A stretch of 64,000 nt of DNA, taken from positions 1,856,001 to 1,920,000 of the forward strand of contig OY970067.1 of NCBI GenBank assembly GCA_963705305.1, read 5' to 3'. The position numbers and the translations under genes were made by a program. Shown here one piece after another: positions 10,861 through 37,506 of this stretch. The DNA comes from an uncultured Methylomirabilota bacterium (GTDB lineage: Bacteria; Methylomirabilota; Methylomirabilia; Methylomirabilales; 2-02-FULL-66-22). The notes below the pieces were generated by a model. The model searched no databases, was not told the origin of the DNA, and saw nothing but the letters and a program-made list of their open reading frames with translations. Every line of letters starts with the position of its first letter. Position 1 is the first letter of the stretch.

Positions 10861-13552
10861 GTGGCGCGAGCAGGCCCCCAAGACTCCGAGTGGCGCACCC
10901 GCAAGCGCCTGATCGACCCCAGACTGCGCGCTGCCGGCTGGCGGGTGGTGAAGTTTGACCCCACCCACCCGTTCGGCAAGTCCGATGCCCTCGCTGTCGA
11001 GGAGTTCCCCACCGACAACGGCCCCGCTGACTACGCCCTCTGCGTGGACGGCCGGCTCCTCGGCGTCGTCGAGGCCAAGAAGCTCACCCTCGGCCCGCAG
11101 AATGCCCTGACCCAAGCCGAGCGCTATTCCCGCGGGGCCACGGCGAGCCCCCTCGACTTCAGCGGTTTTCACGTTCCTTTCCTCTATGCCACAAACGGCG
11201 AGGTTCTCTGGCACCACGACGTGCGGCATCCCCAGAGCCGCTCGCGCCGGATCGCCCATTTCCACACCCCGGACGCCCTGCGCGAACTGCTTGCCCGCGA
11301 CACCGAGGCGGCCTGTGACCAGCTGCTCCTGACCCCGAACAACCATCCCCGCCTCCGCCCCTACCAGGGCGAGGCGAACGCCGCCATCGAGCAGGCTCTC
11401 GCCGATCGGAAACGGCACATGCTGGTCGCCATGGCCACGGGGACCGGCAAGACGTTCACGATGGTGAACGAGGTCTACCGCCTGATGAAGGCCGGCGTGG
11501 CCCGGCGGGTCCTCTTCCTGGTGGACCGGCGGGCCCTGGCGGCCCAGGCGGCGCGCGAGTTCGCCTCCTTCGAGGCCGAGCCGGGGAAGAAATTCACCGC
11601 CATCTACGAGGTGTACAGCCAGCGGTTCCGGCGGGAAGACGTTCGAGGGCGAGCCGTTCGACCCCAACGTCCTGCCGGTCTCGTATCTCACGGCGCCTCA
11701 GGCGAGCCACGCCTTCGTCTACATCAGCACCATCCAGCGGATGACCATCAACCTCTTCGGCCGGGCCGCGGCTTTCCCGGCCGGGGACGAGGAAGACGAG
11801 CCGGACGCCGACCGCCTGGACGTCCCCATCCATGCCTTCGACCTCGTCATCGCCGACGAGTGCCACCGGGGCTACACCGCCGCCGAGGTGGCCGTCTGGC
11901 GGAATACCCTGGAGCACTTCGACGCGGTGAAGATCGGCCTCACGGCGACCCCCGCTGCCCACACCACCAGCTACTTCACCAACCTCGTGTTCCGCTACGA
12001 GTACGAGCGGGCCGTGGGGGAAGGGTACCTGGTGGACTACGACGCCGTAGCCGTCCGGTCGGATGTCCGGATGCACGGGCTCTTCCTACCGGAGGGGCAG
12101 CAGGTCGGGATGGTGGACCCCGCCACGGGGGCGGAGCAGCTCGACCTCCTGGAGGCGGAGCGGCAGTACGACACGACCGACATCGAGCGCGGGGTGACCG
12201 CCCCGGACTCCAACCGGAAGATCCTGGAAGAGGTGCGGAGCTACGCCCGCGCCCACGAGGCAGAGTACGGCCGGTTCCCCAAGACGCTGATTTTCGCCGT
12301 TCACGACCTGCCCCACACCTCGCACGCCGACCAGCTTGTGGACCTCGCCCGGGACGTCTTCGGCCAGGGCGACAGCTTCGTCCAGAAGATCACCGGCCGG
12401 GTGGACCGCCCCCTCCAGCGCATCCGGGAGTTCCGCAACCGGAAACTGCCGGCCGTGGTCGTGACCGTGGACATGCTCTCGACGGGCGTGGACATCCCCG
12501 ACCTGGAGTTCATCGTCCTCCTCCGGCCGGTGAAATCGCGCATCCTCTTCGAGCAGATGCTGGGGCGGGGGACGCGCAAGGGCGAGCACTTCCCCGACAA
12601 GACCCACTTCACCGTCTTCGACTGCCTGGGTGGGTCGCTTCTGGAGTACTTCCGCAAAGTGACGGGCATCACCGCCGAGCTGCCCCTCAAAGAGACCCGG
12701 GCGATCGCGGAGCTCATCGAGGACATCTGGCAGAACCGGGACCGGGACTACAACACCCGCTGCCTGGTGAAGCGCTTCCACCGGATTGCCAAAGCCATGT
12801 CGGGGGACGCCCGGGACCTCTTCGCCCGGTTCGTCCCGCAGGGCGATCTCGGCGCCTTCGCCGCCGAGCTGCCCGCGCGCCTCACCCGGGAGTTCTCCGA
12901 CACCATGGCGATCCTGCGCGATCCCGACTTCCAGAAGCTGTTGGAGGATTACCCCCGGCAGGCACGGCCGTTCGTCGTGGCCTACGAGGCCCAGGACACC
13001 GTGGACAGCACCCGGCTGGTCCGCGGCCCCGATGGGACAGAGTACAAGCCCGACGATTACCTGGCGGCCTTCGCCCGCTTTGTGGCGGAGAACGCCGACG
13101 AGATCGCCGCCCTTCGGATCCTCCTGACCGCTCCCCGCGACTGGAACCCGCAGGCCCTCACGGAGCTGCGCAAGCGCCTGCTGGAGTCGTCGCGCCACTT
13201 TACCGAGGCCAGCCTCCAGCGGGCGCACGAGCTGCACTACCGGAAGGCGCTGGTGGACATCATCTCGATGGTCAAGCACGCGGCCCGGGAGGACGAGCCG
13301 CTCTTCACTGCGGGGGAGCGGGTCCAGCGGGCCTTTCTGCGGGTGACCGCCGGCCGGACGTTCACGGCGGAGCAGCAGGAGTGGCTGGACCGGATCCGGG
13401 TGCACCTGGTAGAGAACCTGTCCATCGAGCAGCAGGACTTCGACGATCTTCCCGTCTTCAGCCGGCACGGCGGCTGGGGCCGGGCCAACGGGGCGTTCAC
13501 TGACAGCCTGCCGGCGCTGCTGCGCGGGCTGAACGAGGCCATCGCGGCATGA
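10861..13552 (+). CDS. hsdR: Type I restriction subunit R (one extra base at ~11641)
   Basis: ADY...VEAKK, MATGTGKT, DECHRG, GLTATP and QMLGRGTR; removing G11641 joins the two ORFs. Confidence 0.9.
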
Positions 13553-14970
13553 GCAACGTCGTCCAAAAACTCTGGGGCTTCTGCCATACCCTCCGGCACG
13601 ATGGGATCGACCACGGAGACTACATCGAGCAGATCACGTATCTTCTCTTCATCAAGATGGCCGACGAGCGGGGCGTGGCCCTGCCGAAGGACACCGACTG
13701 GAGCAGCCTGACCAAACGGGCCGGGACGGACCTATCCGAGCATTATCAAGATGCGTTGCGGAGGCTCGGTAAGCAGGGGGGCATCCTGGGCGACATCTTC
13801 GCCGACGCCCAGTCCCGCTTCAACAACCCGGTCAACCTCAAGAAGCTTGTCACCCTGGTGGACGAGACCGAGTGGACGGCCCTGGAGGTGGACGTGAAGG
13901 CGGCAGCCTTCGAGGGGCTACTGGAGAAGGCGGCCAGTGAGGGCAAGAAGGGCGCGGGCCAGTATTTCACCCCCCGGATCCTGATCCAGACCATCGTCCG
14001 GTGTATGCGGCCCGATCCCCGGCCCCGGCGCGACTTCACCATCTGCGACCCCGCCTGCGGCACCGGCGGCTTCCTGGTGGCAGCGTACGAGTGGCTGATG
14101 GCGCAGACAAAAGGCGCGCTGGAGCGGGATGTCTGGAAGCGCGTGCGGAAGAGCACCTACTACGGCCAGGACCTCGTGGCCCGGCCTCGCCGCCTGGCCC
14201 TCATGAACCTTTTCCTCCACGGGCTGGAGCCGACGATCCACCTGGGAGACGCCATCTACGAGGCGCCGCGCTCGGAATGGTTCGATGTGGTGATGACCAA
14301 TCCCCCCTTCGGGACCAAGGGGGCGAATCAGGCGCCCGTCCGCGAGGACTTCACTGTCGCCACCTCGAACAAGCAGCTCAACTTCGTCCAGCATGTCCTG
14401 ACCCTCCTCAAGCCCGGCGGCCGGGCCGCCATCGTCCTGCCCGACAATTGCCTCTTCGCCGACCAGGCGGGCGAGGTCTTCAAGATCGTGGCCGAGGACT
14501 GCAACCTCCACACGATCCTCCGCCTCCCACGGGGCACCTTCACCCCCTATAGCCCCGGCGTGAAGGCCAACGTCGCCTTCTTCACCAAGGGCTATCCCAC
14601 CGAGACCGTCTGGATCTACGACGCCCGGACCAACGTCCCGGGGATCACCAAAAAGGATCGTCCCCTCGCCGAGTTCCACTTCGCCGAGTTCGAGAAGTGC
14701 TACGGGGCCGACCCCAACGGAGGACCGAAGCGGAAGCCTAGCGCTTCCAAGGAAGACCGTTGGCGCTCGTTCGGTATCGCCGAGGTCAAGGGGCGCGGCT
14801 TCAAGCTGGACAGTTTCAAGTGGCTGAAAGAGGAATCCCTAGAAGACCCCGACGACCTTCCCGAGCCCGAAGAACTCGCCACCGACGCCATCAGCGAGCT
14901 GGAGGCCGCGGTGGAAGAGCTGAATAAGGTGCTGGTCCTGCTGGAGAACGGGAACGGGGGCCAGGCATGA
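13549..14970 (+). CDS. hsdM: Type I methyltransferase subunit M
   Basis: GQYFTPR, DPACGTGGFL, TNPPFG. Confidence 0.95.
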   Translation: MSNVVQKLWGFCHTLRHDGIDHGDYIEQITYLLFIKMADERGVALPKDTDWSSLTKRAGTDLSEHYQDALRRLGKQGGILGDIFADAQSRFNNPVNLKKLVTLVDETEWTALEVDVKAAAFEGLLEKAASEGKKGAGQYFTPRILIQTIVRCMRPDPRPRRDFTICDPACGTGGFLVAAYEWLMAQTKGALERDVWKRVRKSTYYGQDLVARPRRLALMNLFLHGLEPTIHLGDAIYEAPRSEWFDVVMTNPPFGTKGANQAPVREDFTVATSNKQLNFVQHVLTLLKPGGRAAIVLPDNCLFADQAGEVFKIVAEDCNLHTILRLPRGTFTPYSPGVKANVAFFTKGYPTETVWIYDARTNVPGITKKDRPLAEFHFAEFEKCYGADPNGGPKRKPSASKEDRWRSFGIAEVKGRGFKLDSFKWLKEESLEDPDDLPEPEELATDAISELEAAVEELNKVLVLLENGNGGQA

Positions 14971-16553
14971 TGGCCATCACCGCAACAAAGCCCGATTTGC
15001 CCATTGAAGATTCATTGGATGTTGAGGAACTGCCTGAGGGGTGGTGCCTTGTCAGGCTGCCCGATGTTTGCGCCATCAATATGGGTCAGTCACCTCCAGG
15101 GAGAACCTATAACGAGAGGAGGGATGGCTTGCCCTTCTTTCAGGGCAAGGCGGATTTTGGGCCCCTTCATCCAACGGCTCGTAAGTGGTGTTCAGCACCA
15201 TCAAAGACTGCTCGCCCAGGCGACATCCTTATTTCAATTCGGGCACCTGTAGGTCCGACCAACATCGCCGATCAGACCTGCGCAATCGGCCGGGGTCTTT
15301 CTGCGTTGAGCCCGCTAGGCGGAATTCCCAGTCTCTTCATACTTTACGCTCTTCGGTTACAGGAAAAAGCCCTTGCCGAGCAAGGAACCGGCTCCACGTT
15401 TACAGCGATCACACGAGATCACCTAGAAGCCATTAGACTCAGGCTACCTCCTCTGGCCGAGCAGAAGCGGATTGTGGCAAAGGTAGAGGAGTTGCTCGCA
15501 CGCGTGAACGCCGGACGCGAGCGGCTGGCACGTGTCCCTGCCATCCTCAAACGCTTCCGCCAATCCGTCCTCGCCGCCGCCTGCTCGGGTCGCCTTACAT
15601 CAGACTGGCGCGACCAAGGGATCGGACAAGAGACAGAATTGAATAGGCGCCAAGCGGTGCTCAGAGAGCAACTCAATTACCGTGGAGGCGATACAAGGGG
15701 TGGAAATCGTAGCGCAAACAGAAAGGCTGGATCAGAATCTACCGAAGAGTCAATCGGCATCGATGTTAGCAATCTGCCTGAATTGCCCCGTGGGTGGATC
15801 TGGGTGTCACTTGATGCCCTTATCGCATATGGGCCGCAGAACGGCCTATATAAGCCAGCCTCAGACTATGGTGACGGTGTGCCTATTGTCAGGATCGAGA
15901 ATTACCAGGACGACTTTATCCAACCACGCAGCTCCCTCTTAAGGCTCCGCGCCAGCAGTGATGAGAGGTCCTTATACGGTCTCGAGTCTGGAGATTTGTT
16001 GGTAAATAGGGTGAATAGCCCAACACATCTCGGCAAGTCCATAGTCGTTCCTCAGAGTATTTGTCCGGCGGTTTTCGAGTCAAATATGATGAGGATTCGC
16101 GTGTCCGGGGCGGTAATGGCCGAGTGGTTGCATATGTATCTACGCAGTGATGACGGGCGTGCCAGATTGATAGCCGACGCGAAATGGGCCGTCAATCAGG
16201 CGAGTATTAACCAGACAGATGTCCGAAGTACCCCGGTACCGATTCCTTCAGTGGATGAACAACGTGAGGCAGTAAGGAGAACCAAGTCGCTCTTAAATTC
16301 AACTGAGAGAATTGCAAATCGAGTGACGGTAGCAACGTCATACGTGGAAAAAATGAGGCAAGGGATCCTGGCCGGGGCATTCCAGGGCGATTTGGTCCCG
16401 ACCGAGGCCGACTTGGCCCGTGCCGAAGGCCGCCCCTATGAATCCGCGTCTTGTCTCCTTGCGCGGATTCGCTCTGCCCGAACTGCGGAATCCTCGCAGA
16501 TGTCAAGGGCCAGTGATCTGGGGAATTCACGCAACCGCAGGGACGGAATGTGA
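14967..16553 (+). CDS. hsdS: Type I specificity subunit S
   Basis: Two TRDs separated by LPPLAEQKRIV...RFRQSVLAAACSGRLT; AFQGDLVP tail. Confidence 0.92.
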   Translation: MMAITATKPDLPIEDSLDVEELPEGWCLVRLPDVCAINMGQSPPGRTYNERRDGLPFFQGKADFGPLHPTARKWCSAPSKTARPGDILISIRAPVGPTNIADQTCAIGRGLSALSPLGGIPSLFILYALRLQEKALAEQGTGSTFTAITRDHLEAIRLRLPPLAEQKRIVAKVEELLARVNAGRERLARVPAILKRFRQSVLAAACSGRLTSDWRDQGIGQETELNRRQAVLREQLNYRGGDTRGGNRSANRKAGSESTEESIGIDVSNLPELPRGWIWVSLDALIAYGPQNGLYKPASDYGDGVPIVRIENYQDDFIQPRSSLLRLRASSDERSLYGLESGDLLVNRVNSPTHLGKSIVVPQSICPAVFESNMMRIRVSGAVMAEWLHMYLRSDDGRARLIADAKWAVNQASINQTDVRSTPVPIPSVDEQREAVRRTKSLLNSTERIANRVTVATSYVEKMRQGILAGAFQGDLVPTEADLARAEGRPYESASCLLARIRSARTAESSQMSRASDLGNSRNRRDGM

Positions 16554-17665: not shown

Positions 17666-20212
17666 GTGTCTCCGGGAGATAAGCATTACGAGAACGAAGT
17701 GCGGGAGGCCATCGAGCGACTACTTTCGACCGGCATCAAAGAATTCACCGAGATTCTCAAAGCCCTCGGCGGAGCCGATCCGAAGCTCGTTCGTCAACTG
17801 CTGGACGAGATTGGGAATCGTCCGATCCTTGAACCTGTTTCATCCATCGATTCGTTTCGAGCCCGACGCCTCACCGCCGCGTTACCGTTGAAACTGCCAG
17901 CCCCCAATCCGATGGTCAGCCAGTGGTGGTTCACACTGGATACGGTATCCTTTCTGTCGAAAGATGTTTGGGAATTCGCCGGACATCAGCCTGCAGCATT
18001 TCTCGGCGCACCATCAGTTGCCTTCCATTACGCGCACTGCTACAACACACCTACAACCGTCCTCGACATCGACCCGGATGTTCTTCGCGCATTGGAACTT
18101 CCCGCTTCCGGAACGAAGCAAATATACGACGCGTCCTGCCCGATCCCGGAGGGTTTAGGGGGGAAACATTCGGTCGTCCTTGTGGATCCTCCCTGGTACA
18201 ACAGGGAGGTCCAACTCTTTATTGCGCGGGCACGGGAACTCCTTTTTCCCCAAGGATTTATCCTTTGCGTGTTGCCTTCTCGCCTAACCAGGGCGGGAGT
18301 TGTGGCTGATCGTAGTGAACTGCTCGCTCGACTTCTTGCCGCTCATTTCGAAATCGCGGCGTTGGACTCAGATTGCGTTGACTCTACTGTGCCAGAATTT
18401 GAATCCTGCGCATACTCCTCCATTCCGGGCTTTACTGGCAAGTCCTGGCGCCGGGGTGATCTGCTAGTACTCCGAGTGTCCGCAGAGTCTACCCTCACGG
18501 CAGGCCCAGTGTCTCCGTTCAGGATCGAGATCTTCTCCAGGGTTCCAGGGCGTCGTCGCTATTTCCTTGCGCCTGATCGGGTGACCGCCAAGATGCCGTC
18601 GTTTGTGGAGCAGGTGGCATCTTTTGAAACCACAGTCAGCATGCGAACGCCATCAATTGAGGCTGTCGCCGTCTGGGGCTCCAACAAGAAGGGTGTTCAG
18701 GTCCGTGACGCTGGGCTTGCGCGGCGCATTCTAGAACTCTGGCAATCAGGTAAGTCGATCAAAGAAGCCCTCAGCACCCTGGAGTCATCAGGGCCCCTCG
18801 ACCGAGAGGTCGAGGTCTTTGCGGGCGCGCTCGGCCTGTGGAGTGACGACGAGCAATCAACGAGGCGGCGTGGACCAGACGAGTTGGAGGCCCAAAGACA
18901 CAATACTCTTTCAGACGTAGCCGCGCATCCTACCGCACGGCAACACGAGTATGAGTCCGACGGGTTTCGCATATCCTTTCAGAGAGACAGGGACCGGATA
19001 TTGTGGTCGCATTCCCTGAGGCGATTGGCAAACAAGACCCAGCTGTTTCCAGTCAGGAGCGACGACCATCTTCGACGCCGGCTTGCGCACACAATCGAGG
19101 TTATGCAACTTGCGACAACCATCGCTGCCGCGTTCGGGCTCGACCATCAATTGACTGAAGCTGGCGCACTGGCTCACGATCTCGGGCACGCACCGTTTGG
19201 GCATGCTGGGGAGCACGCCATTGATGCCGTGCTGAATGAGATAAACCCGCATCTGAACGGATTCAACCACTACGAGCATGGGGTGGACGTGGTCCGGTGG
19301 CTTGAGGACGTTTATCAATCTCCTGGAGCTGGCGGCTTCCCAGGTCTCAATCTGACTTTCGAAGTGATTGAGTGTATTTTCAAACATACCTACTTTCGAG
19401 GGGACGAGAAGTTGGGCCAGCGCTGGCTTTCCACGAGAACAAAGCATGAAGACCTTGCGAATGACTTATCCTGTCATATGGAGGGCCAGGCGGTACGAAT
19501 TGCCGACAAAGTGTCGTATTTCATTTCTGACCTTGAGGACGGCATACGTAACGGCATCATTGATCTTCCGGCTTTGATGGAATGCAAGTTCTTTCATCGG
19601 CCGCCAATTGACCTGATACCGAGCCATCACGAGTCGCTGTACGAACGCTTCATTTCACAGAGAAGGGCTGTTTTAAAGGTCATAATGGAGGATATCCTGA
19701 CAGCCACAGACAGGAGGATCGCGAGGTTCAAGAGCCTCAGTGATCTGCGGTCCGACAATTCGTATGTCGTGGTGTACTCAGACGGCCTGGCAGAAGACAT
19801 ATCGGAGGTATGGCGGAATTTACAGGTTGGCATCTTGCATAGGGATGCGGGCGTGGTCGCGGCGAATAATCGCGCGGCGAAGGTTGTGAGTGATCTCCTC
19901 CTTGTGTATGCCGTTGCGCCGCATCTTGTTGAGGAGCGGTTCAGAAGGATGCATGCACGTTTGCAGGATTCCGACTACATGAAATGGTACGTTGCACAGA
20001 TCGGTCCACACGTAGCACTATCTAAGCGCCGCGTGAGCACGATTGCGTATGAATATGCGATCGGCGGGCAACTGCAGTCTCAGAGCGAGAATTGGCTAAT
20101 CCCGACGAAGGACCTTATCCAGGCGAAGGATTACGTGGCGAGTCTGACAGACACGCGAGCGCTATCTGAACATCGCACTCATTGCGGAACCCTCTGGGAG
20201 TCCGGGGACTAG
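17666..20212 (+). CDS. Fusion of a methyltransferase-like domain and an HD-family dGTP triphosphohydrolase
   Basis: N-terminal FLGAPS, VLDID and LVDPPWY; C-terminal FQRDRDRI, NKTQLF, RLAHTIEV, AHDLGHAPFGHAGE, DLEDG and DYVASLTD. Confidence 0.85.
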   Translation: MSPGDKHYENEVREAIERLLSTGIKEFTEILKALGGADPKLVRQLLDEIGNRPILEPVSSIDSFRARRLTAALPLKLPAPNPMVSQWWFTLDTVSFLSKDVWEFAGHQPAAFLGAPSVAFHYAHCYNTPTTVLDIDPDVLRALELPASGTKQIYDASCPIPEGLGGKHSVVLVDPPWYNREVQLFIARARELLFPQGFILCVLPSRLTRAGVVADRSELLARLLAAHFEIAALDSDCVDSTVPEFESCAYSSIPGFTGKSWRRGDLLVLRVSAESTLTAGPVSPFRIEIFSRVPGRRRYFLAPDRVTAKMPSFVEQVASFETTVSMRTPSIEAVAVWGSNKKGVQVRDAGLARRILELWQSGKSIKEALSTLESSGPLDREVEVFAGALGLWSDDEQSTRRRGPDELEAQRHNTLSDVAAHPTARQHEYESDGFRISFQRDRDRILWSHSLRRLANKTQLFPVRSDDHLRRRLAHTIEVMQLATTIAAAFGLDHQLTEAGALAHDLGHAPFGHAGEHAIDAVLNEINPHLNGFNHYEHGVDVVRWLEDVYQSPGAGGFPGLNLTFEVIECIFKHTYFRGDEKLGQRWLSTRTKHEDLANDLSCHMEGQAVRIADKVSYFISDLEDGIRNGIIDLPALMECKFFHRPPIDLIPSHHESLYERFISQRRAVLKVIMEDILTATDRRIARFKSLSDLRSDNSYVVVYSDGLAEDISEVWRNLQVGILHRDAGVVAANNRAAKVVSDLLLVYAVAPHLVEERFRRMHARLQDSDYMKWYVAQIGPHVALSKRRVSTIAYEYAIGGQLQSQSENWLIPTKDLIQAKDYVASLTDTRALSEHRTHCGTLWESGD

Positions 20213-20270
20213 GAATCAGGTACCGGATAGTATGCCGGGAATACCATGGGACTAAAAAAGGTACCGGACG

Positions 20271-22269
20271 GTATGCCGTGGATACTCTGGAACTCGCCGG
20301 TGGAAGTCCGGCCCCGGGAGCGGGCAGCGCGCCCGGGTAGCTCGAGGGAGGTGCGAGGGGTAACCCAAGGCATCGAGTTCCCTGACGAGCGCGTCCGACG
20401 GACGTGCGCAACCTCGCAGGCCGTAGCGTGCAGCGAACCCAGGGGTAGCCTCGTTAACTTCAGTGAGGGCGTCGACTCCGTTGTCCGGGGAGGAAGACCG
20501 GTGCTTGGGTGACCACCGCGGCTGTCGGGTCATCTGAGGCCCTCCGGGGTAGCAGGGATGGCATGCGGGGACAGCTTCAGAGGGCACCACGGGAGAGCCT
20601 GGCCAGTGGCCCACAGGAGGCCAACCGGGGCGTATAAGGCACCGCCGAAGTCGCCGCCGGGCTGCCCAGGCAGTCGGAGCGGCCCACAGTACCGCCAGCA
20701 CCCGACGGACAACACAACCGTTGGGGAGGGAAGGGGCCGTGCTCTCACCACGCTTCCCACGGCGGGACGCGAGGAGGATTGCTGTGAGGCTTGAACCTCC
20801 AGAAGCAGTGCGCACCCTCCAGCGGAAGCTTTACTGCAAGGCCAAGTCGGAGCCCACCTTCCGGTTCTACCTCCTCTACGACAAGGTCTATCGGGCGGAC
20901 CTCCTGGGTCACGCCTGGGCCTTGGTGCGCGCGAACGGGGGCGCCGCCGGTGTGGATGGCGTCACCATCGCCGCCGTCGAGGCGGACGGGGTCGGTCCGT
21001 TCCTCGCGCGTCTGGCCGAGGAACTCCGGACGCACACCTACCGAACCGATCCCATCCGGCGTGTAATGATCCCCAAGCGGAAGGGCGGGGAGCGGCCCCT
21101 CGGCATCCCCACCGTGCGGGACCGAGTAGTCCAAGCGGCCACCGTCTTGGTCCTGGAGCCGATCTTCGAGGCGGACTTCCAGCCGTGCTCCTACGGCTTC
21201 CGGCCGAAGAAGGACGCGCACCAGGCCCTGGCGGAGATCTCCCGCACGCTCGCGCAGGGCTACACGCAGGTGCTCGACGCCGACCTCACGGCCTACTTCG
21301 ACTCGATTCCGCACGGCCAACTCCTGGCGGCGGTGGCGCGCCGCGTGACGGACCGGGCCATCCTCCGGCTCTGCACGCAGTGGCTTCGCGCCCCGGTGGT
21401 GGTCGAGCGGGACGACGGGAAGCGGGAGACGCGAGGCGGCAAGCGGACTCGCCGCGGGACGCCACAGGGTGGGGTGATCTCCCCGCTGCTCGCGAACGTG
21501 TACCTCCACGCCTTCGATAGGGCGTGGCGAGCGGGCGGGCTGGAGCGTCGCTGGCAGGCCCGGCTCATCCGGTACGCCGATGACTTCGTGGTGTGCTGTC
21601 GGGCGAAGGCGGCCCAGGTGCAGGCGGTCGTGGCGGAGCAGCTCCAGGCGCTCGGGCTGACGCTGAATCCGGCGAAGACCCGATGCCTGGATGCGCACCA
21701 GCAGGCCTTCACCTTCCTCGGGTTCACGGTGCGGCTCGTGCGGAGCCCACGGACAGGGCGCCTGTTTCCTCTGATCCGTCCCTCCGCCGCTGCCCGCCAG
21801 CAGCTCCGGGACCGGGTAAAGGCCCTCACCGGCCGCGACCACCTGGCGCTGCCGACCCCGACGCTCATCACGGCGGTCAATCAGGTCGTCCGCGGATGGG
21901 CGGGGTACTTCCATTTCCAACACTGCACGCGCGACTTCAGCGCTCTACGGTGGTTCATCGAGGAACGGGTCCGGACGTACCTGCGGCGCAAGCACCGCCA
22001 TCGGACGCGAGCGTACCAGGCGCTCCCGTGCACTGTGCTCTACGGGCGTCTGGGGCTCTACCGGTTGCCCGTGCGGGCGCCCTGGACCCCTCCGACGCAT
22101 GCCGGGCGGTGAAGGTGACCGGAGAGCCGGATGCGGGCAAACCGCACGTCCGGTTCGATGAGGGGGCGCTGGGGCTCGAGCAGGGTCGGGCTCGTGAGGC
22201 ACCGCCAGACGAAAGGGGCGGGAACAGCTAGGCGCGACCTACCCTCGAATAGCCAGTGCTCTACTCTAC
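20271..22269 (+). mobile_element. Full-length group II intron (class F-like, tentative)
   Basis: 5' GTATGCCG; RT ORF; DV GAGCCGGATGCG..CGCACGTCCGGTTC; long DVI ending CTCTAC; joined flanks rebuild the uninterrupted repeat seen at 22794-22830. Confidence 0.9.
20784..22112 (+). CDS. ltrA: Group II intron reverse transcriptase/maturase, no endonuclease domain
   Basis: GVDG, RPLGIPTVRDR, SYGFRP, GTPQGGVISPLLANVYL, RYADD, GWAGYF; RBS GAGGAGG. Confidence 0.95.
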   Translation: MRLEPPEAVRTLQRKLYCKAKSEPTFRFYLLYDKVYRADLLGHAWALVRANGGAAGVDGVTIAAVEADGVGPFLARLAEELRTHTYRTDPIRRVMIPKRKGGERPLGIPTVRDRVVQAATVLVLEPIFEADFQPCSYGFRPKKDAHQALAEISRTLAQGYTQVLDADLTAYFDSIPHGQLLAAVARRVTDRAILRLCTQWLRAPVVVERDDGKRETRGGKRTRRGTPQGGVISPLLANVYLHAFDRAWRAGGLERRWQARLIRYADDFVVCCRAKAAQVQAVVAEQLQALGLTLNPAKTRCLDAHQQAFTFLGFTVRLVRSPRTGRLFPLIRPSAAARQQLRDRVKALTGRDHLALPTPTLITAVNQVVRGWAGYFHFQHCTRDFSALRWFIEERVRTYLRRKHRHRTRAYQALPCTVLYGRLGLYRLPVRAPWTPPTHAGR

Positions 22270-23162
22270 CCCTTTGGTCGCTAACTGCTTGAATTCCTTG
22301 AGAGGCGGTTTCGATTCTTGGCAGATTGTGGGTCTGGCGAGGACGGTGAAGAGGGATCGGACAGCATGCCGTGGATACGCTGGAACTCGCCGGTGGAAGT
22401 CCGGCCTCGGGAGTGGGCGTGCTCCCCGCGCCGCCCAGTTCCTGGGGGACGTTGTTGACTCAGTGGACTTGCCGACTGAGCGGAGGCGCCGAAAACTGCT
22501 GTCGGCCGTGCTTCGCATAATCAGGTGAGGGCTATCCCAAGCTCCTGAAGGCTCCCGATGACGCGCAGGCAGTTCTCGACGAGCTGGAACGCCTCACGGT
22601 GGTGGCACTGGCCGGGGAGGGGCGCTGTCTCCTGGGGCACCCGGGCAATAATTCCAGGGGACGTTGTTGACTCAGTGGACTTGCCCATCGAGGAAAAAGA
22701 TACCGACGCGATGCCAGTTCCTTGGACCTGGCGTCTCAGGGACGCTGGTCATGAGGCGCGGAGAGAGCCAGGCAGGTACGAATGTGGGTCTGTAAAAAGG
22801 GTACTGGACACTTTTGGGTCGCTAATTGCTTGAATTCCTTGAGGAGCGGCTTCAATTCTTGACCAAGGATGTGTTTGGCGAGGACGTTGAAAAGGGTGCC
22901 GGACAGCGTGCCGCAATTACGGGACGATGCTGCTTTACTTGTATTACGGTCTAATTTCCCAGGCCGGCGCCTCGGGCCGCGCCGCCCGGGCGGGGATCGC
23001 CTATATCTGAGTGGAGCGCCTCGGTCATCCCTGGCGGCCCCTCGCCGCGGTCTTGGGGATCTGCCGCGCCATGGCCTACCTGGGGGTGCGGGGCGGTGCA
23101 GAGGTTGGAGCGGAATCGCCCCCCGTGTCGCCAGGGCAAGGCGACGTAGATTGCAATGTCCC
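22270..23162 (+). repeat. Cluster of composite repeats: target-repeat units, intron 5' stubs and GGGGAC modules
   Basis: 22270-22363 resembles 22811-22905; intron stubs at 22364 and 22906; identical GGGGACGTTGTTGACTCAGTGGACTTGCC at 22445 and 22657; GGGAC..GTCCC element at 22921-23162. Confidence 0.85.
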
Positions 23163-23261
23163 GCACTTCATCCGGAGAATGCCGGAGATACAGAACCCGC
23201 GGTCCAGAGGAGAAGGCTCGCCTGAGCTCGCAAGATAAGGCTGCAGGTGTGAGGGAGTGAA

Positions 23262-24221
23262 ATGGCCAAAATCTTTGGTGGCAGGTGGAAGGTCAGGGAG
23301 GACTTAGAGACCGGCGGACAAGCGCATGTATATATCGTCCAGGATTCACGTGGAGAGGGGAGCGATCTGTACGTCCTAAAAAGATTGAAGAACCATAATC
23401 GGCTCAGCCGATTTGAGAAAGAAGTAAAAGCCGGAATGAAGCTCAAGCATCCCGGAATTGCGCCGATCGTGGCTTACTCGCTTTCCGAGCCATCGTACTA
23501 CGTCACGAATTACTATCGAGGCGGAACACTGACGAAAAGAGTTGAGGCTGGCGTGATGGCATCGCTTGATGCGCTTGTCCTTTTCGTTGAATTGTGCCAG
23601 ATCGTCCACTATGCACACTCGCAGGGGATCTTTCATCGAGACTTGAAGCCGGACAACATCGTTTTCGACGAAGATGATAACCCTATTATTATAGACTTTG
23701 GTCTGTGCTATTTCACGGATGAGGATAACCGACTGACGGAAACAATGGAGCAGGTAGGGTCCCGATTCTACATGGCTCCGGAAATGGAGAGGGGACGGTT
23801 GACAGAGGTGACTTCGGCGGTCGACTCATACTCACTCGGGAAGGTGCTTTATTTCATGCTAACCGGAAGGCACATTGCCAGAGAGGCATTCGCAGATCTT
23901 TCCGCCATCACTAGTGCTGCTCAATTGGAGTATGTGTCGGAGAGGATCCTAGCGCAGACCATAGTCGAAGATCCCGCCCGAAGACTTACGCCCGAGAAAT
24001 TAATCCCCATTGTTGAGACTGTATACAGGCTGATCGCAGAGCACTTCTATCCCGGCATTCAAGGTTCTTTATGCAGGTATTGCGGTGAAGGGACATATGG
24101 GCAAGGGATTGAGACGGTAATGCGCTTGCACGAGCCCGGGGTTGAACACTCGGTGACGTTCGATGCTTACATCTGTGGAAGATGCGGAAATGTCCAGTGG
24201 TTCCGACGGCAGAGGGGGTAG
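23262..24221 (+). CDS. Hanks-type Ser/Thr kinase with C-terminal zinc ribbon
   Basis: VLKRL, HRDLKPDN, DFG, YMAPE; CRYC...CGRC. Confidence 0.9.
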   Translation: MAKIFGGRWKVREDLETGGQAHVYIVQDSRGEGSDLYVLKRLKNHNRLSRFEKEVKAGMKLKHPGIAPIVAYSLSEPSYYVTNYYRGGTLTKRVEAGVMASLDALVLFVELCQIVHYAHSQGIFHRDLKPDNIVFDEDDNPIIIDFGLCYFTDEDNRLTETMEQVGSRFYMAPEMERGRLTEVTSAVDSYSLGKVLYFMLTGRHIAREAFADLSAITSAAQLEYVSERILAQTIVEDPARRLTPEKLIPIVETVYRLIAEHFYPGIQGSLCRYCGEGTYGQGIETVMRLHEPGVEHSVTFDAYICGRCGNVQWFRRQRG

Positions 24222-24250
24222 GGAGGAACGGAGTAATGCTGTGAATGGAA

Positions 24251-24404
24251 CTGGACAGTATGCCGTGGATACTCTGGAACTCGCCGGTGGAAGTCCGGCC
24301 CCGGGAGCGGACTTCGTCGTGAGCCCAGCCGAATAGCAACGCGCGGTGGGCCATCCGGCCTTCATGGCATCCTATGCCGCCCGACGGCGGGTTCGGCGAA
24401 GAAT
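24251..24404 (+). repeat. Target repeat + 55-nt intron 5' stub + shared tail
   Basis: CTGGACA|GTATGCCGTGGATACTCTGGAAC...; tail shared with 26032-26192. Confidence 0.85.
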
Positions 24405-24477
24405 GGGAGCCATACCCTCTTTAAATCACGAGGCTACGCCATATATGGTGCGCGTACCTTTTTTGCGGGAGCTAATC

Positions 24478-25977
24478 ATGCTTAATGAACAACAACGCCA
24501 GCGGGCATTGACGGCACTGCATCAATACCAAGAAGCGCGGAACCTTGTGCAAGAGGATGAGACGCTGGACCAACAACGCATGGCGCTGATCGAGAGCGAT
24601 TTAAGGCCGTTAGTTCAGTCCTACCTTGGAGGTGCCACCGAACTGTCTGAATTCAAATCGAGAATTGACAGCCTAAACAAGCTTAATCCTTTTTGGGGCT
24701 TCAAGGGTATCAAGGGCCAAATGTTCTTTAACATGGTGGTGAACGTAGCCGATAACCCGAAAGAATGCGATCAGGAAATCAAGTCTGCGGTTGCCCTGCC
24801 CACTAACGAGCAGATTGCCTCCAGTCGCATAAAAACCTTTGCCAGCTACGTGCAGCGACTTGGCGAGCAATGGGTGAGTGCTGGCAATACCCGATATGGT
24901 TGCCCGAAGCTCGGCAGTATCCCCTTTTTCCTCTCCTACTTCTGGCAGATCCAGAATCGCGACACCTGGCCCGTGTACTACACTAATACAAACGCATTTT
25001 TTATTGATGATACACGCTCCGGCTTAGCGTTCGTATCTGCGGCCTTCCACGCGGAGCGGGAAAGGCCCCTGACAGGCAATGGGCCGGGGCCACGTAACAG
25101 GAATTCATGCGTTTGTATTAGCAGTATCAATGCCATGGTAGACCTGAACCTTTGGCAACCCTCTGGTGAAATGGCCGAGGACTACTTGGCGTACAAGCGA
25201 CTGCATGAAGATTTGGGCCGGCTATTTGCCTCGGAGACCGGCCGTGGCTTTCAGCTCTACGATGTCGAGCACGTTTTCTGGTTCAAAGCCGGTAATCCGT
25301 ACGGGGCTGCACGGGCCGAAGAAGGGCGCGCTGCCAGCCACGACCTTGGAGCGCAGGCAAGCACAGGCGCGACCGATGACTCGAGTCGACTTCCTGAAAG
25401 CTATGTTCCGTCAATCGTGGCCATTCTTCCGCGCATCGCGCGGCATGAAGCTGGTCTTGAAGACCTCGCCAGGCAATCGGGCACAACCCTGGAGCGTGCG
25501 TTCGAGAAGTATATCGATGCGGCGTTGACCATGCTTGGCTATGAGACGAAGTTGCTGGGGCAGGGTCAAGGGCGCGTTCCGGACGGAGTAGCCGTGGCCT
25601 TGGACGACAGCTATGCGATTCTGTGGGACGGCAAGATTCGCCGCGGCGGGTACAGCATGGGGACGGATGATCGCACGATCCGCGAGTACATCTCGACTCA
25701 AAGCCGGGAACTGAAGCGGCGACGCTCGCTCAGGAATATCTACTATGTTGTCATCTCGAGCACATTTGTCGATGATTTCGACGAGTCTATTAGGTCTATT
25801 AAGATGGAAACCGACGTAAACGAGGTTGTATTGGTCGAAGCGGATGCCTTGGTTGCCATGGTCGATGCGAAACTGCGATCGCCTCTTCAAATATCTCTTG
25901 GCCCTGACGGCCTGTAGCGGCTATTCAGTTCAAGTGGAATTGTCAGCGCAAGTACCGTTATTGAGCAGTTGGTCTAG
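24478..25977 (+). pseudogene. Restriction endonuclease-like gene (FokI-type PD-DxK C-terminal domain) with an in-frame MITE and a premature TAG at 25915
   Basis: VPDGVA...ILWDGK...GYSMGTDDRTIREYI; the frame continues 19 codons past the TAG. Confidence 0.65.
24986..25118. mobile_element. 133-bp IS630/Tc1-type MITE
   Basis: TIR ATACAAACGCAT / ATGCGTTTGTAT flanked by a TA duplication. Confidence 0.85.
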
Positions 25978-26031
25978 GCCGATCTAGGTCGTAAATCGCG
26001 CGGGGGGGGCGAAAGCAGGAGAGGTGCGCAA

Positions 26032-26192
26032 TAAAAGTACCGGACAGCGTGCCGTGGATACCCTGGAACTCGCCGATGGAAGTCCGGCCTTGGGAGCGGG
26101 CTTCGTCGTGAGCTCAGCCGAACGGCAGCGCGCCTGGGCAATCCACCCCTTCTGGCATCCTATGTTCCCCGGCGGCGGGGTCGGTCAAGAAT
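26032..26192 (+). repeat. Target repeat + intron 5' stub + shared tail
   Basis: AAAAGTACCGGACA|GCGTGCCGTGGATACCCTGGAAC... Confidence 0.85.
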
Positions 26193-26226
26193 TGAAACCT
26201 TGCCCTCGTCAAGTCACGAGGTGACG

Positions 26227-27746
26227 CCCTAATCTCCGGCTAAGAAGTTGAGGGGGATCGCGAATCACGCAGCGGCCCGCAGTGCGCGCGGCCCGCGGGG
26301 TTGGCATCGGCCTTGCTTGGTTTCACCCAGTGGGTGCAAACACCACAAGGAGGAGAGCGATGCCCGACACCTCGCCCCGGTTGCCGTTCGAGATCGATGA
26401 CGCGATCGACCCCACGCTGGTCACGGGCCGGGCCGGGGTCCCGCTCGTGATCGAGCTGTTCCGCCAGCTCGGGGTGGCCCAGGCCGTCGACACCCACGTT
26501 GCGGTCAAGCAGCGGCAGCGCGGATTACCCCCCTCGCAGCTCGTGGAGAGTCTCGTCGCGTTGTGGACGAGCGGCGGGGACCGCTGCCAGGACCTCACGA
26601 CGCTCCGGGAGGATCAGGCCCTGGCCACGCTGCTCGGCTACCCCCTGCCGGCCGCGACCACGGTCCGGGACTTCCTCGAGGCCTTCCACGTGGAGGACGG
26701 GCCGCTCTGGGTGGCCGGGCCCGCGGCCACGGTCCCCCTGGAGTCCGCCCCCTTGGCGGGCCTCGGACAGGCGAACCGGACGCTGGTCGCGGGCGTCCAG
26801 CGCGGGGCCCGGGCGGCGACGGCCACCCTGGATGTGGACGCGACGCTCGTCGAGAGCCACAAGGACGCGGCGACCGTGGCCTACGACGGGACCCGGGGCT
26901 ACCAGCCCGTCGTGGTCCTCTGGGCCGAGCACGATGTCATCGTGCACGACCAGTTCCGCGATGGCCAGGTGCCCGCCGGGTGCGGCAACGTGCGCGTCCT
27001 CGAACAGGCGGTGGCCAACTTGCCCCAGGGCGTGGACCGCATCTCCCTGCGGGCCGACAGCGCCCTCTACGAGACGGAGGTCCTCCGCTGGTGCGAGGAG
27101 AAGAAAATCGCCTACGCGATTAGCGCCGATATGTCCGCGCAGCTCCAGGCCGAGATCCGGCGCCTCCCCGCGGCCGCCTGGCAGCTCGAGCGGGAGGAGC
27201 CCGAGGCGATCCGGGCCTGGGCCGAAGTCCCCTACGTCCCCGAGGATGGCGATCACCGGAAGGCGCGGCCGTGCGTTCGCCGCTACCTCGCGGTGCGTAT
27301 CCAGCGACGCCAGGGGAGCCTCTTCGCCGACGGGAGTAGCGTGCAGTACTTCGCCGTGGTCACCAATCGGCCGGAGGATGGGCTCACGATCCTCCGGTGG
27401 CACCGGGAGAAAGCAGGGACCATCGAGCACACCCATCACGTCCTCAAGACCGAGCTGGCGGCCGCCGCGCTGCCCAGTGGGAAGTTCGGGGCGAACGCCG
27501 CCTGGTTCCGGCTGAACGTGCTCACCTACAACCTGCTCACCGCGCTCAAGCGGTTGACCTTACCCGGAGATCTCCGGACCGCCCGGCCGAAGCGTCTCCG
27601 GTTCCTGCTGTTCAACACCGTCGGGAAGGTCGTCGCGCATGCCCGACGGACGCTCTTGCGGCTCTCGGGCGCCCTGCAGCACGCCTTGCTCGTCCGGGCG
27701 CGGCGCAAGATCGCCCGGCTGGCCACCGCTTAGCCGGAGATTAGGG
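26227..27746 (+). mobile_element. IS1380-family element
   Basis: Perfect 18-bp TIRs CCCTAATCTCCGGCTAAG / CTTAGCCGGAGATTAGGG; no TSD. Confidence 0.9.
26360..27733 (+). CDS. IS1380 transposase
   Basis: TLDVDAT, LRADSALY, KAGTIEHTH, FGANAAWF; RBS AAGGAGG. Confidence 0.92.
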   Translation: MPDTSPRLPFEIDDAIDPTLVTGRAGVPLVIELFRQLGVAQAVDTHVAVKQRQRGLPPSQLVESLVALWTSGGDRCQDLTTLREDQALATLLGYPLPAATTVRDFLEAFHVEDGPLWVAGPAATVPLESAPLAGLGQANRTLVAGVQRGARAATATLDVDATLVESHKDAATVAYDGTRGYQPVVVLWAEHDVIVHDQFRDGQVPAGCGNVRVLEQAVANLPQGVDRISLRADSALYETEVLRWCEEKKIAYAISADMSAQLQAEIRRLPAAAWQLEREEPEAIRAWAEVPYVPEDGDHRKARPCVRRYLAVRIQRRQGSLFADGSSVQYFAVVTNRPEDGLTILRWHREKAGTIEHTHHVLKTELAAAALPSGKFGANAAWFRLNVLTYNLLTALKRLTLPGDLRTARPKRLRFLLFNTVGKVVAHARRTLLRLSGALQHALLVRARRKIARLATA

Positions 27747-27830
27747 TTAGGCACCAAATGGTGTCCGGTACCTTTTTCGTACCTTTTTTAGGGCTTGCGA
27801 GCCCGCGAATGGGCAGAAGGAGGATGGGAC

Positions 27831-29033
27831 ATGGGAAAGACCTGTCGTATAGCGGCTCTTATGATTCTAGTTTTGGGGATTTCGCTGCCCTCGTTCGGGG
27901 CGCAGGGGAGCGGTGTCGGCAACCCGATCAAAGTGGGAAATCTCATCACCCTGACTGGGCCGAACTCAAGCCCTGGGATCGGCATCCAGCGGGGGATGAC
28001 GCTCGCAGTCGAGGAAATCAATAAGGCGGGTGGAATTCAAGGGCGCAAGATTGAGCTCATCAGCCGGGACACCCAAGGGGATCCGACGAAAGCTGTGAAT
28101 GCGGCCCTGGAGCTGATCAACAATGAGAAGGTGGAATTCATTGTCGGTCCCACGAACTCGGGCGAGGGGATGGCAACTACCTCGCTGATCTCGCGCCACA
28201 AACAGGTTCTGAGTATAGTGATCGGGGCGGCGGATGAATTGATTGATGCCGAGAAGTATCCCTACGCCTTCCGGATTTTCCCATCCAATTCCCAGTGGAT
28301 CGGTGCGGCGAACGATTACCTCGTGAATATCTTGAAGGCCAAGAAGATCGGTCTCCTGGGGGACACAACGGGCTATGGGACGGCATCGGTGAACTTAGCC
28401 GAGCGAATGCTCAAAGAGCGTGGGATAGACGTCGTTTACCGGGGCCTCGTGGAACCAACCCAAGCCGACGTGCTCGCCGATGTACGCAAAGCCCGAAGTT
28501 CGGGGGCCGAGGCGATGGACGTTTGGACGAATGCGACCGGCCTGATTGCCCGATTCCTGAACGGACGGGCCGAGTTGGGTTGGAGCGCCCCGTTTGCTGG
28601 TCATCCGTCCTTGGCTCATGCCCAGACGAAAGCCCTGCTTGCAAAGCCGGACAACTGGAAAGACGTGTACCAGGTTGGCTACCGATCCATGAGCTACGAC
28701 GAGGCCGGCACGTTGCCGGAGAGCACACAGAAGCTGCTGACACTTCTGAGGGAAGCGGGTGCGCCCATCGGCGACACCCCTCTGTTCTTTATTGCTTCCG
28801 GATACGATACGGTCCATCTCATTCGCTATGGAATGGAGGGAGCCGGCTCGAGCAAAGCAGACGACGTGCGGCGGTTCCTGAACTCCGGCAAGACATTTCC
28901 AGGGACCTGGTGTAGGTGCACGTATTCCCCAACCAACCATAACGGCTTCGCCACAGCCAACGTCGTGATGAACCGCGCCGATTCATTCCGGAGTGACGGA
29001 ACCTATGCCCTTGCCCCCGGCTACGGGAAGTAG
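27831..29033 (+). CDS. LivJ-type ABC substrate-binding protein (orphan)
   Basis: Signal peptide; AVEEINKAGGIQGRKIELISRD, YPYAFR. Confidence 0.88.
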   Translation: MGKTCRIAALMILVLGISLPSFGAQGSGVGNPIKVGNLITLTGPNSSPGIGIQRGMTLAVEEINKAGGIQGRKIELISRDTQGDPTKAVNAALELINNEKVEFIVGPTNSGEGMATTSLISRHKQVLSIVIGAADELIDAEKYPYAFRIFPSNSQWIGAANDYLVNILKAKKIGLLGDTTGYGTASVNLAERMLKERGIDVVYRGLVEPTQADVLADVRKARSSGAEAMDVWTNATGLIARFLNGRAELGWSAPFAGHPSLAHAQTKALLAKPDNWKDVYQVGYRSMSYDEAGTLPESTQKLLTLLREAGAPIGDTPLFFIASGYDTVHLIRYGMEGAGSSKADDVRRFLNSGKTFPGTWCRCTYSPTNHNGFATANVVMNRADSFRSDGTYALAPGYGK

Positions 29034-29043: not shown

Positions 29044-29280
29044 GAGGTCCCGGACAGCATGCCGTGGATACGCTGGAACTCGCCGGTGGAAGTCCGGCCT
29101 TGGGAGCGGGCTTCGGGCGTGTGTCGCATAATCAGATGAGGGCTATCCGATGCTCCTGAAGCCCCCCGATGACAAGCAGGCGGTTCTCGAAGAGCTGGAA
29201 CGTCTCGCGGTGGCGGCGCCTCCCCGGAAGCGGGACTGTCTCCTGGCGGACCTGGGCAAGGCGACGTAAATTGCAGCGCG
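29044..29280 (+). repeat. Target repeat + intron 5' stub + module shared with 22514-22650
   Basis: CCCGGACA|GCATGCCGTGG...; CGCATAATCAG.TGAGGGCTATCC module. Confidence 0.85.
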
Positions 29281-29783: not shown

Positions 29784-30459
29784 AGTCTGGCAGGTTCTGG
29801 GGGACGTTGTTGACTCAGTGGACTTGCCAATCAAGGGAGGTTATCGGAAGGCAGGGTGTGGAGATGCGGGGTCTCGCCGCTAGTCCGTCCCCGGGAAAGA
29901 CACCGAGGGGACGTTGTAACATTAATTACCTTGTTCGATGCCGGGGCGCTATGTCCACGAGTTGAGGATCTCCGGCGCCAAAGGCGGCGGGTAGGGATAG
30001 CGCACACGAAGGGAGAAAGACCATCCGGCAGAAGGCAGCGGACAGGCGATGAAAGGCCGGAGGCAGGGGCCGAGCACCGCGAGCCGGGCGGCGGGGCTGC
30101 CGAAGAATTGAAGCGGCCACGCCCCCTGCGTGTTTACTTCCCCCTGGTTCTGGCACCGCTCGCACCGGGCCGCATGGGTCACGACCGCCATATCAGCGCT
30201 CCCCCATCCAGAGCCACATGGGGTCACCCAGCAGAGCCGGTCGGGGGTTGTCCAGACTGAGCCACCCCAATGGTCGAACGGACAGCACTGGCGGCTTCTG
30301 GCGGTTTGTGTTATCTTCTTTAGGGTTGAGCGTGTGCCACGTCCAATCCTGAGCTTCGTGGGCCCCACGTCTCTCTTGGGCGATCCGCGGCGGCTCAGTG
30401 TGGGTGATCCAGGCAACCCTCCCTACGCGACCATTGACACGCATGGATCGCGCAGCACT

Positions 30460-37007: not shown

Positions 37008-37069
37008 GGAGAGACAGATTACCGGATGGCAAGGCGGCGCCTCCCCGCCCTCGCGTAGGGGGGACATAA

Positions 37070-37494: not shown

Positions 37495-37506
37495 GAGAGA
37501 AAAGTA

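Follow-up and report, generated by a model that had tools for sequence, protein, structure and literature searches.

A group II intron apparently guided by its EBS1 loop into the tips of a MITE-like palindromic repeat

We analysed a 64,000-nucleotide stretch of the genome of an uncultured Methylomirabilota bacterium (GenBank assembly GCA_963705305.1, contig OY970067.1, positions 1,856,001 to 1,920,000 of the forward strand; hereafter the window), in which a group II intron interrupts a dispersed repeat. [quoted passage not shown] Retrohoming would proceed by pairing of the EBS1 loop (5'-UGUCCGG, 20482-20488) with 5'-CCGGAC(A/G) in the target, and insertion would fall between CCGGAC(A/G) and the following C, so that the predicted cognate site reads (A-rich)GGTACCGGACA/CC, the slash marking the point of entry. 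In this way the intron would live inside another repeat family, where its insertion may cost the host little. Both its present-day splicing and its mobility are predicted from sequence. The intron, its flanks and its parts lie in the window as follows.

20271-22269, + strand: complete group II intron, 1999 nt, 5' end GUAUG, 3' end ...CUCUAC
20255-20270: 5' flank, AAAAAGGTACCGGACG
22270-22297: 3' flank, CCCTTTGGTCGCTAACTGCTTGAATTCC
20294-20431, + strand: domain I core, Rfam RF02003 group-II-D1D4-4, 76.8 bits (gathering 49)
20452-20465, + strand: EBS2-type loop, the internal loop at alignment columns 186-198 of the consensus fold
20480-20488, + strand: Id3-type terminal loop GUUGUCCGG on the stem 20476-79/20489-92, with EBS1 at 20482-20488
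20784-22112, + strand: intron-encoded protein (IEP), 442 aa, GTG start at 20784, with RVT_1, GIIM and YADD
22122-22269, + strand: domains V and VI (D5/D6), Rfam RF00029 Intron_gpII, 45.5 bits (gathering 40)
22124-22156, + strand: domain V, 33 nt, 5-nt apical loop GCAAA
22160-22266, + strand: domain VI, long (about 107 nt), from a consensus fold of related 3' ends

An earlier reading of the letters alone (the original prediction) had placed a group II intron between these flanks, and its coordinates were exact or at most 4 nt off. An RNAalifold consensus built from the first 460 nt of each of five related introns contained 142 pairs in domains I to III, 33 of them with compensatory changes, in the standard layout of these domains. 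When the 3' ends of seven relatives were folded together, the apical loop of D5 was GCAAA, GAGAA or GAAAA in all seven, and the bulged A of D6 (22263, seven nucleotides from the 3' end) was kept in 7/7 aligned ends. Without its open reading frame (ORF) the ribozyme measures about 670 nt. The IEP carries RVT_1 (5e-36) and GIIM (3.3e-15) domains in Pfam, has the YADD motif as YADDFVVC and passes the NCBIfam equivalog TIGR04416 with 373 bits against a cut-off of 300. A Pfam scan found no DNA-binding or endonuclease domain in it and nothing C-terminal of the maturase domain; NCBIfam and Pfam return generic group II reverse transcriptase (RT)/maturase families only and resolve no class. The intron's 5' end had been said to deviate from the canonical GUGYG, and so it does: both full copies start with GUAUG, most stubs with GCAUG. 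Among relatives in the genus it is GUAUG, GCAUG, GAAUG or GUGUG, and GUGCG in more distant relatives of the D1D4-4 family.

The guide resides in the stem-loop CTCC-GTTGTCCGG-GGAG at 20476-20492. In the five-intron consensus the terminal loop caps a 4-bp stem that stands on a 3-bp base within subdomain Id, and two of the pairs covary. EBS1 forms 7 bp with CCGGAC(A/G), occupied sites including one G-U pair; its partner, intron-binding site 1 (IBS1), is the last 7 nt of the 5' exon (20264-20270). Loop and exon change together among related introns. Class a, to which the window intron belongs, combines the loop UGUCCGG with 5' exons ending in CCGGAC(A/G). In class b the loops GAGCGGA and GGACGGA match the 5' exons UCCGCUC and UCCGUUC, and in class c the loop GGACGUU faces the exon AACGUCC. 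We scored loop against exon in seven introns, three Spirochaetia/Bryobacterales rows being left out: an intron's own loop and exon paired at 7/7 positions in six of the seven, and pairings across classes gave 2-5 of 7. A distant relative with about 43% IEP identity has, by eye, the homologous loop GUAAACA facing exons that end in UGUUUGC or GUUUAC. The complementarity of a TGTCCGG loop to CCGGACA had been predicted, as had the need for that loop to sit where EBS1 belongs; it does, in the terminal loop of Id with covarying pairs, and the 7-bp pairing covaries with the exon across the three classes. Because of this position in Id and the covariation with the 5' exon, we assign 20482-20488 as EBS1. 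Class b shows an EBS2/IBS2 pair as well, between a loop CAUAAU just upstream of EBS1 and the exon sequence AUUAUG. Sister introns in the genus thus appear to have turned to other short targets by re-programming EBS1 (and EBS2). In congeners, the class b target reads ATTATGGGTCCGYTC, with EBS1 and EBS2 both matched (loci L004, L025 and L014), and the class c target reads GCAACGTCC (loci L013, L030, L033, L034 and L037).

We then asked where homologous introns sit. Related introns gave a match in 22 of the 41 relatives searched and in 18 of the 20 congeners. From the genome and the fetched loci we collected 29 distinct 5' junctions, of which 22, from six genomes, are of class a (one of them assigned by hand). 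The motif A-rich-GGTACCGGAC(A/G), that is an A-rich run, GGTA and CCGGAC(A/G), precedes 21 of these 22 junctions. It is conserved from -17 to -1, and the sequence farther out is unrelated from one junction to the next. At the remaining class a junction, in G010, the intron has entered the same repeat tip on the opposite strand, GGTGTCCGGTA/CCTTTTTT. On the other side, 18 of 19 3'-junction rows begin with C. Homologues therefore do insert at the same motif, which was one of the checks proposed with the original prediction: 21 of 22 junctions conform and the 22nd lies in the same tip, inverted. These counts come from kin genomes that are not independent of one another, and copy numbers in the relatives are lower bounds, their draft genomes breaking at repeats.

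Further evidence came from the genome under study (G000; 5.65 Mb, one contig), the whole of which was searched with the intron by blastn. A second full copy, at genome positions 4098836-4100834 and 2.2 Mb distant, is 100% identical over 1999 nt. Upstream their identity ends after 17 nt (AAAAAAGGTACCGGACG), downstream after 2 nt (CC). Since two identical copies stand in unrelated surroundings, we conclude that insertion was recent and site-specific. Along the genome, cumulative GC skew is lowest at 1.82 Mb and highest at 4.14 Mb, and the window begins at 1.856 Mb. For both full copies, all stubs of the window and the two relatives on the minus strand (0.36 and 1.13 Mb), the sense strand is the one on the leading-strand side, a bias resting on four independent loci only. 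RmInt1 of Sinorhizobium meliloti, which reverse-splices into the lagging-strand template, has the same bias (PMC8914252; this and the other papers cited by PMC number were drawn on in excerpt). The leading-strand side of all intron pieces suggests that priming would take place at the replication fork. Three more domain I matches of the D1D4-4 family, at G000 365304-365441 (-), 373289-373419 (+) and 1127462-1127603 (-), mark additional group II introns of that family; the RT of the one at about 1125750-1127600 is 68% identical at the DNA level to that of the window intron.

The repeat that receives the intron is represented in the window by one occupied and several empty copies.

20254-20270, + strand: 5' exon target, A-run, GGTA and IBS1 CCGGACG (20264-20270), from the sequence and the junction census
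22270-22363, + strand: 3' exon, a palindromic-repeat arm that closes with a second motif copy at 22348-22363 (alignment)
22794-22905, + strand: empty repeat arm, tip motif 22795-22810, second motif 22890-22905, then 8 nt that are intron-like (blastn, nhmmer)
27747-27777, - strand: remainder of a reversed arm, empty tip 27762-27777 (motif scan, nhmmer)
40892-40907, - strand: empty motif copy, A-run with 3 mismatches, IBS1 unaltered (motif scan)
47681-47775, + strand: empty repeat arm, tip motif 47681-47696, IBS1 CCGGAAA with one mismatch to EBS1 (nhmmer)
53877-53953, + strand: empty diverged arm, tip motif 53877-53892, 17 nt past the stop of the gene at 53078-53860 (nhmmer)

Empty sites had been proposed at 22794, 27758, 40890, 47681 and 53881, and all were recovered within 4 nt. 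In particular, the uninterrupted repeat at 22794 exists and matches both flanks of the intron: the 3' flank (22273-22368) is 79% identical over 97 nt to the copy at 22790-22910 in blastn, and the 16-nt 5' motif differs from the copy starting at 22794 by 2 mismatches. A scan of the window for the 16-mer motif, allowing up to 3 mismatches, gave 10 hits where chance would give 0.29, and a 22-mer taken from the 3' part gave 2 hits where chance would give 0.00. A preserved 3' exon carries on the conserved arm CCTTTTG.GAGCTAAGTGCTTGAATTCC...TTTCAATTCTTG, as at both G000 copies and the full copy of G004; in G005 and at another G004 end it probably does so too. With a profile of the arm, nhmmer detected 12 copies in G000, each about 75-110 nt long and five of them lying within the window; of 21 genomes from the genus, 9 contain arms by blast. 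Its other species have a longer arm, accompanied by a related second arm that is inverted relative to it. Complete elements of 152 nt (G000 4487521-4487672) and 256 nt (L091) have near-perfect tips of 18-24 nt, and both fold as long imperfect hairpins. The target thus appears to belong to a low-copy, MITE-like palindromic element of 150-330 nt, whose imperfect inverted-repeat arms bear it as their outer tip. As in a MITE, the element is short and non-coding, has terminal inverted repeats and occurs in multiple dispersed copies.

REP sequences (repetitive extragenic palindromes) and the BIMEs (bacterial interspersed mosaic elements) are imperfect palindromes of 20-40 nt, present in hundreds of copies and linked to RAYT (Y1) transposases. 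The description of the repeat as REP-like was not borne out, the 12 long arms belonging instead to a low-copy MITE-like palindromic element. The genome does hold sixteen Y1_Tnp (IS200/RAYT-type) matches, an unusually large number, most in open frames of 217-567 aa. No clear link to Y1/RAYT emerged, only two arm loci lying within 5 kb of a Y1_Tnp match. We also considered that the repeat might be the 3' end of an opposite-strand gene family and rejected this, the frames being short, inconsistent between copies and often broken. A frame of about 50 aa conserved in some congeners was likewise set aside: it has one in-frame indel, but neither a consistent start or stop nor a Pfam family.

The intron enters 16-17 nt inside the tip and reads inward. 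Modelled as a single strand, the tip may fold as AAAGGT-loop(ACCGGAC)-ACCTTT, which would present IBS1 in a hairpin loop. Two gene-bearing stretches of the window lie between inverted tip copies, one of 3.8 kb (37069-40907; a small membrane protein, RhuM/Fic and a 694-aa protein) and one of 5 kb (22795-27777; a kinase, a FokI-domain protein and an insertion sequence (IS)). They might be cargo-carrying palindromic elements, or chance.

From its structural features alone, the ribozyme would be classed as IIB-like with IIE/IIF features, and not as IIC. IIE/IIF lineages have a small ribozyme and a 5-nt D5 loop, and a long D6 is described for IIF (PMC3753933). The window intron has this feature set (5-nt D5 loop, small IIB-like ribozyme and the long D6 of IIF) and, like IIE/IIF introns, carries both EBS1 and the EBS2-type loop in subdomain Id. 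According to PMC4424553, IIC introns have a 3-4 nt EBS1, lack EBS2 and insert behind a hairpin. The window intron resembles IIC and IIC-attC introns in having an IEP without an endonuclease (En) domain, a target that includes a short intergenic DNA hairpin behind genes, and cassette-like neighbours. Unlike them, it has a 7-nt covarying EBS1, enters inside the 3' arm of the hairpin and belongs to another Rfam domain I family. The analogy to IIC introns at terminators and attC sites that came with the original prediction is thus contradicted by the 7-nt EBS1, the EBS2-type loop and the IIE/IIF-like D5/D6.

Three target modes are known, namely homing sites, terminators and attC (PMC4424553, PMC12584367), and the window intron uses the homing-site mode. 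The same two papers place the majority of bacterial group II introns in intergenic DNA or inside other mobile elements. By analogy, its closest counterpart is RmInt1 (IIB3/bacterial class D), which homes into ISRm2011-2 with an En-less IEP (PMC1802570). Like RmInt1, the window intron has an En-less IEP and a homing site inside another multi-copy mobile element; like the relatives of RmInt1, its kin show diverged target specificity in the same host group and leave 5' remnants (PMC4181065, PMC4615759, PMC4496777). It differs from RmInt1, as that intron is described, in that its target is a non-coding palindromic tip, not a region of an IS gene, and in its D1D4-4 domain I, 5-nt D5 loop, long D6, GUAUG end and lack of an evident EBS2 pairing. 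A group II intron of P. putida KT2440 has 2 of its 9 copies associated with REP sequences (PMC1525189), and apart from that case we found in the open-access literature no group II intron homing into a MITE or a REP tip. The window intron shares with REP-targeting elements the use of a short palindromic genomic repeat as a landing site. It differs from that REP association in that its repeat consists of 12 arms of about 75-110 nt and in that the association is near-complete (21/22) and RNA-guided. The proposal that this lineage specialises in a multi-copy repeat, as a parasite of another repeat system, is therefore supported by 21 of 22 junctions, while the idea itself was already known from RmInt1. 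What is new is the kind of host repeat, the possible presentation of IBS1 in a hairpin loop, the clade-wide GUAUG end and the cluster of stubs.

The window holds 7 of the 12 genomic blastn matches to the intron. Besides the full copy these are six 3'-truncated copies of its 5' end between 22364 and 37141, all on the + strand and all behind a motif copy; blastn detected no such stub elsewhere in the genome. They are listed with one decayed site.

22364-22418, + strand: stub 1, intron nt 3-55, 94% identical
24258-24310, + strand: stub 2, nt 1-53, 100% identical; next come the palindromic element's centre and its reversed arm to about 24470
26047-26101, + strand: stub 3, 92% identical, in the same composite as stub 2
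29057-29111, + strand: stub 4, 94% identical, 24 nt past the stop of the gene at 27795-29033
35239-35426, + strand: stub 5, about 190 nt, 83% identical, Rfam D1D4-4 match at 35262-35415, stopping before the EBS2/EBS1 region
37085-37141, + strand: stub 6, nt 3-57, 91% identical
20219-20244, + strand: decayed motif GGTACCGGATA plus 15 nt resembling the intron 5' end, just 5' of the occupied site

We conclude that the stubs are dead 3'-truncated copies. Bacterial group II introns usually decay by losing their 3' terminus (PMC4496777, PMC4181065). Five of the stubs (22364, 24258, 26047, 29057 and 37085) end at nt 55-57. In the consensus fold, nt 53-57 form the apical loop of hairpin Ib, with pairs 43-48/63-68 and 50-52/58-61. 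By blast end points, four stubs of G006 end at about nt 50-56 and one of G007 at about 55. The stubs at 24258 and 26047 and one G006 locus have a common downstream sequence and reversed arm; this composite is a palindromic element in which one arm is replaced by intron nt 1-55. Those at 22364 and 29057 have in common a downstream block that includes a gene start. At least some stubs thus appear to have spread by duplication of their carrier repeats. As a guess, the shared end point reflects a fragile GC-rich hairpin apex together with spread along with the carrier repeat. Shorter decayed traces of the intron are seen at 22906 (8 nt) and 20230 (15 nt). Several class b and c copies are 3'-truncated as well, at other end points (about 211 and 234). 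Within the island, 22502-22648 and 29113-29259 are 82% identical, including the start of an ORF at 29169, a segmental duplication. A further repeat, GGGGACGTTGTTGACTCAGTGGACTTGCC, occurs in the window at 22443-22473, 22655-22685, 29798-29828, 46224-46254 and about 54140-54170, and also in another species (G006 locus L038, about 4560); in several copies it stands a few nucleotides 5' of a motif-like sequence that is followed by a decayed intron 5' trace.

Several observations weigh against EBS1-guided homing by a functional intron, or fit it poorly. The intron at the inverted G010 junction has an EBS1 that differs by one base and pairs at only 5/7 positions with its own exon. The genome has about nine further exact GGTACCGGAC(A/G) 11-mers that lack the A-run and repeat context, all of them empty, and several good repeat tips are empty too; therefore either the 7-11 nt core is insufficient or mobility is rare. 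An exhaustive complementarity search of the 23-nt 5' exon against the first 520 nt of the intron gave no convincing EBS2/IBS2 for class a (the best in the homologous loop pairs at 5/6), and no such pair accounts for the conserved A-run and GGTA. The 5' end, GUAUG, is one base off GUGYG, a departure common to the whole local clade. For the host element we saw no target-site duplication (by eye, in the few complete copies) and found no parent transposase; 'MITE-like' is therefore descriptive, and the element's own mobility is putative. Metagenome contigs contain no exon-exon joint, none of them spanning the whole stretch; one DNA run yielded intron pieces that are 100% identical and two metatranscriptome runs yielded pieces that are 90-97% identical, and these contig data weigh neither for nor against splicing. 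Finally, at least four different downstream sequences follow the end point that the stubs share (in G000, G006 and G007), and an end point common to unrelated contexts is not explained by simple random decay.

Some of these points would be expected if the target were read mainly as a DNA hairpin, in the IIC-like manner of introns at terminators and attC sites, with the EBS1 match secondary. The tip is foldable as AAAGGT-ACCGGAC-ACCTTT and the folds of the element pair the tips; the A-run and GGT, which would be the 5' arm of the hairpin, are conserved at 21 of 22 junctions with no EBS2 partner to account for them; the exact 11-mers outside the repeat context are empty; and most 3' exons begin with CC followed by T-rich sequence. 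However, insertion falls within the 3' arm of the hairpin and not behind it, and the 7-nt EBS1 covaries with the exon in three subfamilies, one of which (class b) has a clear EBS2/IBS2. Moreover, neither D5 nor D6 is IIC-like, nor is domain I in its size, and the class b and c targets show no such hairpin. We consider hairpin recognition unlikely to be the main determinant, and guidance by EBS1 the far better account of the target.

The shared end point of the stubs raises the question of whether the motif plus a 55-nt stub is itself under selection as a module, be it an RNA or DNA structure, a promoter or a boundary element, or is a scar left by a gene-joining event that recurs behind target sites. 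Such a reading would fit the recurrence of the end point in G000, G006 and G007 ahead of four or more unrelated downstream contexts, the position of all six window stubs, 7-116 nt past the stop of the preceding co-directional gene, and single, apparently compensatory changes in two small hairpins. Against this, the stubs at 24258 and 26047 are 87% identical, the same as the 87% over the neighbouring 95-nt block of neutral repeat, so that there is no sign of selection. Other end points also occur (8, 15, 71, about 190 and about 211 nt), loss of the 3' end is a known decay route (PMC4496777, PMC4181065), and proximity to gene ends is expected of anything intergenic in a compact genome. On balance a selected module or joining scar seems improbable. 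A related idea, which we hold with little confidence, is that the motif and stub are a recurrent product of structure-directed breakage or template switching, at occupied target sites, in the apical loop of hairpin Ib (nt 53-57), by which any downstream sequence, whole genes included, is joined to the tip. If so, the intron lineage would contribute to building and punctuating a series of co-directional defence genes close to the replication origin, and the stubs would be boundaries between gene units, a non-integron counterpart of the role proposed for IIC-attC introns in cassette formation.

That the shared flanks merely reflect segmental duplication of the intron with its surroundings, with no site-specific homing, is very improbable: the stubs at 22364 and 29057 do share downstream sequence including a gene start, and those at 24258 and 26047 share about 200 nt, but the identical full copies have just 17 nt upstream and 2 nt downstream in common, the 22 junctions are unrelated beyond -17, nine genomes of the genus contain empty arms, and EBS1 is complementary to the flank.

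If EBS1-guided homing into repeat tips is correct, the intron would be a natural example of an endonuclease-less group II intron that picks a safe multi-copy site purely through a 7-nt guide loop. Its sister introns in the genus would escape target saturation by re-programming that loop, to which the three target classes seen by covariation point. The placing of IBS1 in a hairpin loop would offer a variant way, open to testing, of presenting the target at the replication fork. A compact and apparently active intron from a poorly studied soil lineage could also become a re-targetable scaffold for gene targeting, and a cluster of stubs with a common end point in a defence island bears on how bacterial introns decay and on the residues they leave.

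Distant relatives of the intron were found in Bryobacterales metagenome-assembled genomes (MAGs; loci L127, L129, L130, L132-L134, L136, L145 and L146) and in a Spirochaetota MAG (L137-L139). Their IEPs are 44-46% identical, their RNA belongs to Rfam D1D4-4, and they occur in 2-7 identical copies per genome, at about 965-990 in each locus. The 5' exons all end in TA[CGT][ACT][AC]T, then 6 to 10 nt, then ATG followed by the intron's GTGCG, and the EBS1 loop is CAUUUCA. This exon end resembles a -10 box with a leaderless start codon. Each 3' exon is unique; that of one copy reads (M)KALFIGGTGLIS, like the N-terminus of an epimerase. From these sequences, the distant lineage may home right behind start codons. 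A IIB1 family at start and stop codons is known (PMC12584367), and the D1D4-4 RNA of the start-codon lineage looks different from it. In a Spirochaetia MAG (L181), a related intron lies inside the RT gene of another retroelement, and its 3' exon from 2987 translates to NIVGGVISPLLSNVYLNEVDRML.

The intron and its stubs stand in a region (10.8-38.9 kb) close to the GC-skew minimum, where nearly all genes are on the + strand and many are defence-related.

10861-16553, + strand: type I restriction-modification HsdR, HsdM and HsdS (Pfam)
17666-20212: dGTPase-type protein (PADLOC, 5e-53)
23262-24221: PD-T4-6-type kinase (PADLOC, 2.6e-42)
24346-25917: FokI-cleavage-domain protein (Pfam)
26227-27746, + strand: IS element with a DDE_Tnp_1_4 transposase (26282-27733) and 18-nt perfect terminal inverted repeats, CCCTAATCTCCGGCTAAG
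34927-35199: BrnA antitoxin (Pfam)
35529-37007: RNB nuclease (Pfam)
37892-38911: RhuM/Fic protein, PDC-S23 (PADLOC)

The spacing of the stubs behind genes is expected for intergenic elements, yet the region resembles a cassette array. The dGTPase-type protein has a fused, N6-methylase-like N-terminus. The IS element at 26227-27746 is inserted in the reversed arm of the stub 3 composite, beside a conserved CTAA/TTAG.

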